Of a stretch of DNA of 52,885 nucleotides, positions 5,939 to 7,647 are shown piece by piece. How positions within the stretch are numbered: the stretch's first letter is position 1; each line of letters begins with the position of its first letter. The position numbers and the translations under genes are program-made. A model generated the notes under the pieces. That model worked only from the letters and a program-made list of their open reading frames with translations, was not told the DNA's origin and did no database searches. The stretch comes from a virus (taxonomy: Duplodnaviria > Heunggongvirae > Uroviricota > Caudoviricetes). Location: positions 1-52,885 of IMG/VR virus record IMGVR_UViG_2802429241_000010. The stretch is one strand, 5' to 3'.

Positions 5939-7009
5939 ATGTTACAATATACATCTGTAGAGATTTGTGCAGGGGCAGGAGGTCAAGCTCTAGGGTTACA
6001 TAACGCTGGCTTCGCTCACCGCGCACTCGTCGAGATTGATCCAGCAGCCTGCGAAACTCTTCGCCTCAACAATAACCTCCATTCTTTAGGTTGGGGAGAT
6101 ATCATAGAGGGTTGCGTTAAGCATTTTGCTGAACACACTGCATATAATTTTTCTGATGTTGACTTGGTTGCAGGGGGAGTGCCCTGCCCACCATTCTCAA
6201 AAGCAGGGAAGCAACTTGGCAAAGATGATGAACGTGATTTGTTTCCGACAGCGCTCAAAATTGTGAACACTATTAAGCCAAAAGCAGTAATGATTGAAAA
6301 TGTTTCAGGTTTGTTAGACCCAAAGTTTAAACAATATCGGCAAGAACTAGATCATGCTTTCTCTGCAATGGGTTATAAGACCTTTTGGAAACTTCATAAT
6401 GCTTCTGATTACGGAGTTCCTCAGCTTCGCCCACGTGTTCTTTTAGTCGCATTGCGTGGTGAATATGCAGCTCATTTTCATTGGCCGAGTGAAACGTTGA
6501 TACCGCCGACTGTGGGTGATGCCCTCTTTGACTTAATGTCAATGGGAGGTTGGGAAGGAGCTGAAGCCTGGAGAAAGGCAGCAGATAATATAGCTCCTAC
6601 ACTTGTTGGCGGTTCCCATAAGCATGGGGGGCCAGATCTTGGCCCGACAAGAGCCAAAAGATCCTGGCAAGCGCTTGGAGTCAATGGACATTCCATAGCG
6701 GATAATGGCCCTGAAAAGGGGTTTATCGGGTATGTTGGAAGAGACGGAAAGGTTCGGGCTGGTTTTGAAAATATGCCTCGTTTGACTGTAAGAATGGCTG
6801 CACGAATCCAAGGTTTCCCCGACTGGTGGAAATTCTCTGGTAAAAAAACAGCTGCTTATCGTCAAGTCGGTAACGCTTTCCCCCCCCCTGTTGCCGAGGC
6901 AACAGGAAGGCAAATCCGTAAAGCACTCGAAGCTGTTGACATCATGAAAAAACAACAGTTGGCGTTACCACTCGAGTCAAATGATATTCAGAGCTTGCGT
7001 ATTGCGTAG
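5939..7009 (+). CDS. DNA (cytosine-5) methyltransferase
   Basis: 356 aa; C5-MTase motifs I (EICAGAGG), IV (GGVPCPPFSKAG, atypical PCP), VI (ENV), VIII (QLRPR), IX (RIQGFPDWW), X (GNAFPPP). Confidence 0.85.
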   Translation: MLQYTSVEICAGAGGQALGLHNAGFAHRALVEIDPAACETLRLNNNLHSLGWGDIIEGCVKHFAEHTAYNFSDVDLVAGGVPCPPFSKAGKQLGKDDERDLFPTALKIVNTIKPKAVMIENVSGLLDPKFKQYRQELDHAFSAMGYKTFWKLHNASDYGVPQLRPRVLLVALRGEYAAHFHWPSETLIPPTVGDALFDLMSMGGWEGAEAWRKAADNIAPTLVGGSHKHGGPDLGPTRAKRSWQALGVNGHSIADNGPEKGFIGYVGRDGKVRAGFENMPRLTVRMAARIQGFPDWWKFSGKKTAAYRQVGNAFPPPVAEATGRQIRKALEAVDIMKKQQLALPLESNDIQSLRIA

Positions 7010-7647
7010 GCAACGATTTCGTCTAATGAAATCCCATTTGCATCGGCTAGCTGTTGAGCTTTTCTTAAAGCAGCTTCTGGCAGATGGAGCATTGTAGTAA
7101 TCCCGAACTTTTCAGGGAATGCCCATGAGCATGTGTAACAATCATCAGTACACCCCTCACATGCTCTTCTCTTACCTACGTTGCAATTGTGGCAAAGAGC
7201 TTGCCAATTGGTTAACTCATTTCCACCACCACGTGACAAAGGTATTTTGTGATCCGCTTGTAGCCCCCTGACCCCACCTGCAACAGTTTTACCACATGTT
7301 GCACATGTATTGCTGTGGTTAGAAAATAAACCGGATCGTTGTGATTCTGTCAGGTATTCCCTTTCCATTGGTGGGGCAATCATACTTGATTTCAGCCGCC
7401 AAGCATGCCCCGAGAACTCCGCAATGTACGAGCTTTCGAGATCACAGCCTAGTTCATCTCGCAATTCTCTTGTTCGTCTATCGAAGTACTTTTGCCCTGT
7501 CAGTTCCAGTAGTTCTATTGATGAGACCCAAGGTTTAGGAAAATCAATATCATCCGAGCCCCATAATCTCTTCAGGATAGTCAACTTGACTTCACTCAAT
7601 CGCTTTTTTTTAGGTAACGCTGACAAATAATTTTCGAATAATTCCAT
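6988..7647 (-). CDS. HNH endonuclease, putative restriction partner of the adjacent methyltransferase
   Basis: 219 aa; HNH zinc finger CATCGK…ADHKIPLSRGGGNELTNWQALCHNCN, second Cys cluster CEGCTDDCYTC, RHH-like C-terminal tail; 3' end overlaps the MTase 3' end by 22 bp. Confidence 0.75.
   Translation of the reverse strand: MELFENYLSALPKKKRLSEVKLTILKRLWGSDDIDFPKPWVSSIELLELTGQKYFDRRTRELRDELGCDLESSYIAEFSGHAWRLKSSMIAPPMEREYLTESQRSGLFSNHSNTCATCGKTVAGGVRGLQADHKIPLSRGGGNELTNWQALCHNCNVGKRRACEGCTDDCYTCSWAFPEKFGITTMLHLPEAALRKAQQLADANGISLDEIVAYAIRKL

Follow-up and report, generated by a model that had tools for sequence, protein, structure and literature searches.

A convergent C5 methylase and HNH nuclease pair in an Escherichia-like window: a probable Type II restriction-modification system with a candidate LexA operator before the methylase gene

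This analysis concerns two convergent genes in a stretch of 52,885 nt (the window), which comprises positions 1-52,885 of the Caudoviricetes record IMGVR_UViG_2802429241_000010. The first gene, on the plus strand at 5939..7009, encodes a C5 cytosine DNA methyltransferase (hereafter, methylase) of 356 aa; the second, on the minus strand at 6988..7647, encodes an HNH nuclease of 219 aa. Both start with ATG in the list of open reading frames (ORFs), and their coordinates confirm a tail-to-tail overlap of 22 bp at the 3' ends (6988..7009), which an earlier sequence-only reading had claimed. Just before the methylase gene, on the plus strand at 5911..5930, lies a predicted LexA (SOS) box. Taking these elements together with related loci, we consider it probable that the pair is a two-gene Type II restriction-modification (R-M) system; its methylase may be wired to the SOS response.

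The methylase matches PF00145 over residues 5-327 (E 2.5e-68) and also TIGR00675 (E 6.7e-46). As had been proposed, the canonical C5 motifs are all there: I (ICAGAGG), IV (GGVPCPPFS, with the catalytic Cys83), VI (IENV, Glu120), VIII (QLRPR, 162-166) and X (GNAFPPP), and these five are conserved in 120 homologues. Motif IV, read from the translation as PCPPFS at DNA positions 6182-6199 of the plus strand, had been called atypical for lacking the usual PCQ. The substitution is real, but it is typical of this family, being invariant in 120 of the 120 closest homologues. PCPPFS is also found in nearly all methylase orthologues that stand beside HNH genes, and PCQPFS in the most distant ones (L046-L049, from Leptospira and Bdellovibrionia; L numbers denote the related loci described below). 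Judged from the sequences, Pro for Gln in motif IV is a lineage-wide substitution in an otherwise retained PF00145 signature. It is unlikely to signify an inactive enzyme, because the catalytic Cys is kept and the lineage is still tied to a nuclease. The PADLOC models MTase_II and DruM score the protein at 388-474 bits. Its closest solved relative is M.HaeIII (E 6.7e-26), a match that covers the catalytic domain only and leaves the target-recognition region outside. Methylase homologues in the databases bear generic names throughout.

The nuclease matches PF01844 (HNH, E 9e-11) and HNH_5, and the PADLOC Type II restriction enzyme model REase_II (PDLC03478) covers nearly its full length (E 5e-21). 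Three parts can be distinguished. Residues 1-95 (7363..7647, minus strand) form a generic winged-helix DNA-binding domain, the probable sequence reader. The HNH core, residues 111-161, followed by a second Cys4 cluster, spans 7129..7317 on the same strand. Within it are a Cys4 zinc site (C115, C118, C152, C155), the catalytic residues D132-H133, N147 and N156, and the second cluster, C163/C166/C170/C173. The catalytic residues and all eight zinc-binding cysteines are invariant among 36 family members and present in the window protein, so that the zinc-finger HNH core and the second Cys cluster noted previously are both substantiated.

The third part, residues 183-219 (6991..7101, minus strand), is a C-terminal element that resembles a ribbon-helix-helix (RHH) fold, as indicated by a structural model and by Pfam matches at the family level. 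An AlphaFold model of the nuclease, made from an alignment of the 36 relatives, has a mean predicted local distance difference test score (pLDDT) of 79.7; the tail is modeled as an extended segment followed by helices at 191-204 and 208-218, with pLDDT ~90. Pfam RHH_1 is matched by 10 of the 36 family members (best E 1.2e-5) and RHH_3 by two; a comparison of the family profile with CopG (1b01) gave a weak match (E 1.3). The RHH-like tail suggested by the sequence-only reading is thus supported for the family, by these matches and by the predicted helices, whereas the window protein itself falls below RHH significance. RHH domains are obligate dimers, from which we infer that the tail joins two subunits, whose two HNH sites would cut both strands; it is the probable dimerization module. 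This role is favored over that of an autoregulator because a search upstream of the HNH genes found no operator common to the lineages, and we rejected the autoregulator on that ground. In the window, the region upstream of the HNH gene (7648..8104, minus strand) displayed no cross-lineage operator-like element, no promoter-like matches above chance and no Rfam match. A small inverted repeat, CCTT-N8-AAGG, lies just 5' of the HNH start (7666-7681, minus strand). The version in the Dryocola locus L004, CCTTG-N6-CAAGG, pairs over a longer stretch; the repeat could be a hairpin of the leader or a product of chance.

To place the pair in its family, we collected homologues and their neighborhoods. 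We found 348 HNH homologues of ~219-226 aa, 55-67% identical across phyla. Their sources include enterobacteria, Vibrio, cyanobacteria, Micavibrio and Acidithiobacillus, and each of the three protein parts has invariant residues. We compared 130 related loci, 50 from species-representative genomes and 80 from metagenomes, in which the genes were placed by tblastn. In 47 of the 50 genome loci, the HNH homologue has an orthologous C5 methylase (47-98% identity) as its immediate neighbor. In two more, the methylase place is taken by an unrelated C5 methylase (27% identity), and the remaining one (L051) holds a 52-aa HNH fragment, the sole HNH remnant without a methylase. In the metagenomes, 76 of the 80 loci have the methylase beside the HNH gene; the other four are short contigs or have the HNH match near a contig end. 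When ORFs of the 50 genome loci were clustered, the only recurring families were the HNH protein and the methylase, the next clusters being antisense shadow ORFs inside these two.

Complete genome loci are convergent in 34 cases, divergent in 9 and tandem in 2; the corresponding numbers for metagenome loci are 59, 15 and 2. The convergent, overlapping layout of the window is thus the commonest one in the family. The distance between convergent genes is typically -22, -4 or 0 to +6 (negative values being overlaps); the -22 of the window recurs in L001-L005, and many other lineages have values from -4 to +6. The two proteins have diverged in step: their identities to the respective window proteins are correlated with a Spearman coefficient of 0.82 (n=102), or 0.75 when near-identical loci are left out. 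Three HNH homologues, in L024, L102 and L052 (59%, 53% and 30% identical), stand beside an unrelated C5 methylase (26-27% identity), whose motif IV in L024 and L052 reads PCQGFS; from sequence comparison, this pairing suggests replacement of the methylase within the family. Over the 130 loci the most depleted palindromes are GGCC, GCCGGC and GGCGCC. These were counted without a control set and are generally avoided in bacteria, and we draw no specificity from them.

The two genes do not decay alike. The HNH gene is damaged in six loci, by an in-frame stop (L021), loss of the N-terminus (L031), a stop together with H133R (L032), a frameshift (L037) or truncation (L044 and L050). An intact methylase ORF is present in the first four of these; in L044 and L050 the ORF finder recovered no methylase ORF, and near-full-length methylase matches remain. 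The HNH gene is therefore the partner that decays, a pattern more in keeping with a toxic restriction enzyme than with a repair factor. A restriction enzyme and its protective methylase are expected to be strictly linked, to co-diverge and to lose the nuclease first, as is seen here. With the PADLOC restriction enzyme match, this comparative genomics strongly supports the original Type II R-M proposal, and we regard the convergent pair as likely to be such a system.

These observations bear on three other readings of the pair. The nuclease might be a modification-dependent, McrA-like Type IV enzyme, as had been raised at the outset, with the methylase an unrelated or antagonistic neighbor. Winged-helix domains can indeed read modified DNA in some Type IV enzymes, many HNH homologues bear the JGI label 'McrA', and the best solved sequence match of the nuclease is the HNH domain of EcoKMcrA (6ghc, E 0.01). 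That match, however, spans just the ~50-residue HNH core. Moreover, a nuclease dependent on 5-methylcytosine would be self-destructive in this setting, locked as it is in nearly all of the 130 loci to a co-diverging orthologous C5 methylase with intact motifs. PcaRCII, a methyl-dependent HNH enzyme, has no methylase gene nearby (PMC8989522), unlike the pair described here. The idea is not supported, and we hold it to be very improbable.

A second possibility is that the methylase is solitary or epigenetic and that the HNH protein is either a Vsr-like nickase of T:G mismatches or a selfish or homing nuclease of the island that carries the pair. A C5 methylase often comes as a pair with a repair nuclease whose gene overlaps its own, Dcm-Vsr being an example, and a LexA box would suit a DNA-repair function. 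In Caulobacter, an SOS-linked Vsr-like gene is reported (PMC12907096). The box, however, sits on the methylase gene, not on the nuclease gene, and the repeated inactivation of the nuclease beside an intact or near-full-length methylase points the other way. The nuclease also gives no Vsr signal (PF03852), with Pfam and NCBIfam reporting HNH families only, and PADLOC scores it as a Type II restriction enzyme. A dimer-forming RHH element and a palindrome-type architecture would suit double-strand cleavage. We judge this explanation improbable.

Finally, the pair could belong to a larger system, either with the neighboring 421-aa gene or of a Druantia type II-like kind. The best PADLOC model of the methylase is DruM2 (PDLC00029, 474 bits), and the 421-aa gene, which lies 457 nt from the HNH start, itself looks defence-like. 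Against this, no third gene recurs in the 50 genome loci. The 421-aa gene is absent from the 130 related loci and from the 58 E. coli genomes with the pair, is not beside the pair in E. coli ET245 or O111:H- 11128, and stands alone in a prophage hotspot of Klebsiella. Nor is there a DruE-, DruF- or DruG-type gene that recurs in the 50 loci or is annotated in these two E. coli carrier regions. The earlier suggestion of a joint system with the 421-aa gene thus found no support, and we consider membership of a larger system extremely improbable.

We next turn from the pair as an R-M system to the candidate control element before its methylase gene. The predicted LexA box AACTGTTTTTATATACAGGT, with its core CTGT-N8-ACAG at 5913-5928, was called from its matrix score and comparative position. 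It is close to the gammaproteobacterial-type 20-bp palindrome TACTG(TA)5CAGTA, lies in the leader of the methylase gene with its end 9 nt short of the ATG, and shares bases with the likely Shine-Dalgarno AGG. Scored with a matrix from 19 E. coli SOS boxes, it reaches 21.9 bits, within the 13.3-26.9 bits of those boxes themselves; the runner-up in the 52.9 kb has 9.0. The CTGT-N8-ACAG pattern occurs once in the window, at this box. At least one such pattern also arose in 40 of 100 shuffles of the window, which on the pattern alone leaves chance open.

The pair could accordingly be an R-M system in which the palindrome is no operator but a chance AT-rich sequence or the site of some other regulator. 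Consistent with this are the shuffles and the many family members that have no box and use instead a divergent helix-turn-helix (HTH) gene with two GTAAAT-N5-ATTTAC palindromes. What weighs on the other side is position. In the 52 loci (557 kb) made up of the 50 genome loci and two E. coli regions, 9 of the 10 sites of at least 16 bits sit 18-39 nt before the methylase start; in the metagenome loci (299 kb), so do 13 of the 19 sites of at least 14 bits, at 19-34 nt. Over 857 kb of related loci, high-scoring sites are thus concentrated 18-39 nt 5' of the methylase ATG, an extreme positional enrichment. The sequences are also telling. At least seven different boxes keep the CTGT/ACAG bases that LexA contacts, and only these, while spacers, flanks and the surrounding promoter are unrelated. 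Those found before the methylase are the Enterobacteriaceae form, identical to that of the window, and the forms of Dickeya (TACTGTTCATAAACACAGGG), L061 (TACTGTCTTTATATACAGTT), L063 (TACTGTATATATAACCAGCG), L065 (AGCTGTGTATTTAAACAGTA), the Neptuniibacter type (TACTGTACATTTAAACAGTA), Endozoicomonas (CACTGTCTATAAATACAGTA) and L121 (TACTGTACAGTTATACAGCG). A plausible -35/-10 pair, such as TTGAAC-16-TACAGT, coincides in part with the box in several lineages, and the HNH genes of the related loci have no LexA-type site before them. We therefore lean towards a functional operator, as far as sequence can indicate one, and regard the non-operator alternative as rather unlikely. The box-carrying lineages are most likely gammaproteobacterial. 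In L067 and L070, three copies of the LexA-like AACTGTCTACAAAAACAGGG (15.1 bits) lie exactly 22 nt apart, ~490-540 nt upstream of the methylase start.

Other lineages appear to use other regulators at the same place. In loci from Thiotrichales, Methylococcaceae and Moraxellaceae (L006-L008, L016, L017, L021), a divergent gene encodes an HTH-like protein of 64-70 aa (MNVLSPEEIIEQ...), with two of the GTAAAT-N5-ATTTAC palindromes between it and the methylase gene (e.g., L008 7689-7974). In Pfam, the HTH finds weak support (E 0.05). This gene would be a controller-type regulator standing where other lineages place the LexA box. With a controller in some lineages and a LexA box in others, the methylase promoter appears to be the regulated node of the family, with either its own controller or a borrowed LexA according to lineage. 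The alphaproteobacterial LexA box has the consensus GTTC-N7-GTTC (PMC12907096), and a sequence of this form, GAACAAAATAGGAAC, occurs in L020, a Micavibrio metagenome-assembled genome, at 7703-7717, 61 nt before the methylase start. This form precedes the methylase in one alphaproteobacterial locus only, and its background is 16 per 559 kb, or ~0.003 per 120-nt region; the site is suggestive only and may be chance.

These data suggest a model of how the system might work. The methylase, with Cys83 as nucleophile, would place 5-methylcytosine on a short sequence in host DNA. The nuclease would read the same sequence, most likely through its N-terminal winged helix, and cut it when unmethylated, using an HNH active site of the H-N-N type held by the two Cys4 zinc sites; it would probably act as a homodimer through the C-terminal RHH, so that both strands are cut. 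LexA would hold methylase expression at a maintenance level. DNA damage, whether from self-restriction of under-methylated DNA or from the SOS response that accompanies DNA entry, would de-repress it. The 22-bp overlap leaves no room for a terminator between the genes, so each transcript would have to run antisense into the other gene. A raised methylase transcript could therefore act twice, giving more protection and, by running antisense into the HNH gene, less nuclease. The net effect would be a damage-triggered restriction alleviation for a Type II system. We offer this feedback logic, comprising LexA repression, damage induction and antisense damping, tentatively.

Several points weigh against this interpretation. 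Unless it were only partial, repression of the antidote gene would seem risky. A LexA box is missing from many lineages of the family, from which it follows that SOS control is not a defining feature of it. No sigma-70 promoter of the window methylase gene is obvious: in a scan of 5500-8150, sigma-70 promoter-like matches were at chance level and terminators were not found. As for the nuclease, RHH significance is reached by family members only, and among solved structures no restriction enzyme resembles it beyond the HNH core. The core itself is modeled with low confidence (pLDDT 45-70), as expected because zinc was absent from the modeling.

The pair has a recognizable genomic setting. The window is Escherichia-like, matching E. 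coli chromosomes at 97-99% from 9676 onward, with no close E. coli match at 7600-9675. A tRNA-Thr(CGT) lies at 51441-51516, and an Rfam search of 5000-10500 matched no family. Upstream of the pair, all on the plus strand, are genes for an antirestriction protein (3662-4120), RadC/JAB (4136-4612), DUF987 (4609-4842), a YeeU-family antitoxin (4861-5178) and the CbtA toxin (5198-5539). This order is the usual tail of a CP4-like island, and the genes at 3662-5539 correspond to those annotated 5' of the pair in E. coli ET245. One island thus carries both an anti-restriction gene and a restriction system. The pair is present in 58 of 5426 complete E. coli genomes, with both genes every time and always on the chromosome; in these 58 genomes its annotation is solely 'DNA cytosine methyltransferase | HNH endonuclease'. 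In ET245 it abuts a tRNA-Thr beside proA, and in O111:H- 11128 it is flanked by insertion sequence (IS) elements. The pair is best explained as cargo of a CP4-like genomic island of the thrW (tRNA-Thr) region, located at the island's far end.

The 421-aa neighbor seems to be a separate matter. Its protein has no Pfam, NCBIfam or PADLOC match and has 329 homologues in gammaproteobacteria, all named 'hypothetical'. An AlphaFold model reaches pLDDT 88.6 and a predicted template modeling score (pTM) of 0.90, and an invariant R349-N-G-I-A-H354 corresponds to the Rx4H signature of HEPN. In Klebsiella the gene is found by itself in a P2-type prophage, with gpA on one side and ogr/portal on the other, a position that we take to be a hotspot of anti-phage genes. 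It resembles a single-gene cargo of HEPN type and is best regarded as a separate candidate abortive-infection RNase. Beyond it, window ~9676-16000 matches E. coli M8 and MS 119-7 at 98-99% and contains genes for a protein-kinase-domain protein, a LEM-3-like GIY-YIG protein, the PinE invertase and tail fibres; a 205-aa hypothetical protein at 10211-10828 has no family match. This region resembles a prophage remnant with defence-like cargo.

In kind the pair is ordinary; as an R-M system it would be one more member of a very large class. Its family, however conserved and widespread across phyla, is one for which we found no experimental study. Literature searches on HNH and RHH restriction enzymes and on E. 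coli O111 methylomes returned nothing on it; a Paracoccus 'HNH R-M' paper and the PcaRCII paper concern other proteins than the window nuclease. A nuclease of this layout could offer a new specificity as well as a restriction enzyme of a new structural type. With PCP fixed where PCQ is usual, the family also provides a natural experiment on the catalytic loop of C5 methyltransferases. If the LexA operator is functional, it would explain how a host survives establishment or lagging methylation, and it would tie defence-system autoimmunity to the SOS response. LexA is not, to our knowledge, among the modes of control given in reviews of R-M regulation, which are controller proteins, methylase autoregulation, antisense RNAs and promoter methylation. 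Searches on LexA or SOS with restriction-modification found no report of a LexA-controlled R-M methylase, so that the apparent operator is unreported in the literature as far as searched. It is possible, if short of an even chance in our estimate, that SOS-coupled control of the antidote is the first case in which restriction by a Type II system is alleviated through transcription, and that it solves the 'methylase first' problem of establishment in a new way. The position beside the CbtA/YeeU toxin-antitoxin genes at the island end also means that the pair may help to stabilize the island.

How does the pair compare with known systems? KpnI, Hpy99I and PacI are HNH Type II enzymes of ~200-230 aa with a Cys4 zinc-stabilized site and an adjacent, separate methylase gene, and they are homodimers. 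The window system is like them in its small nuclease with HNH and Cys4 zinc motifs, in the adjoining methylase gene and in the homodimer expected on a short site; it differs in that its nuclease has no detectable sequence or fold relation to them outside the HNH core. EcoKMcrA (6ghc), with its HNH of the CxxC...DH...N...CxxC type, is the best solved match of the window protein. A search with the family profile placed 4h9d first and 6ghc second, and the HNH region of the nuclease aligns to the HNH of both. McrA, however, has no partner methylase and carries a different N-terminal reader, whereas the window nuclease is tied to a C5 methylase. No solved example of the domain order winged helix, HNH, RHH was found. 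With Druantia type II the likeness lies in DruM (PDLC00029), which the window methylase matches over the full length of the model; PADLOC matches the methylase alone, and DruE, DruF and DruG are not beside the pair. This likeness reflects a shared C5-methylase subfamily and not membership of the system.

The closest parallels in regulation are of two kinds. PvuII, Esp1396I and Csp231I, and likewise EcoRI and Eco29kI, which are controlled by controller proteins or by antisense or convergent promoters, share with the window system the problem of having methylase before nuclease and so avoiding self-cutting. Some lineages of the family resemble the controller type, with their small divergent HTH gene and paired palindromes by the methylase, and the convergent overlap of the window pair gives scope for control of the antisense type. 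Unlike these systems, the window and several other lineages have no regulator encoded by the system and appear to use a host LexA operator instead. The other parallel is restriction alleviation of EcoKI, which likewise means less restriction and more protection on a damaged or under-methylated chromosome (PMC11109961). EcoKI is a Type I system and its alleviation is post-translational, by ClpXP proteolysis of HsdR, whereas the route proposed for the window would be transcriptional, acting through LexA on a Type II pair.

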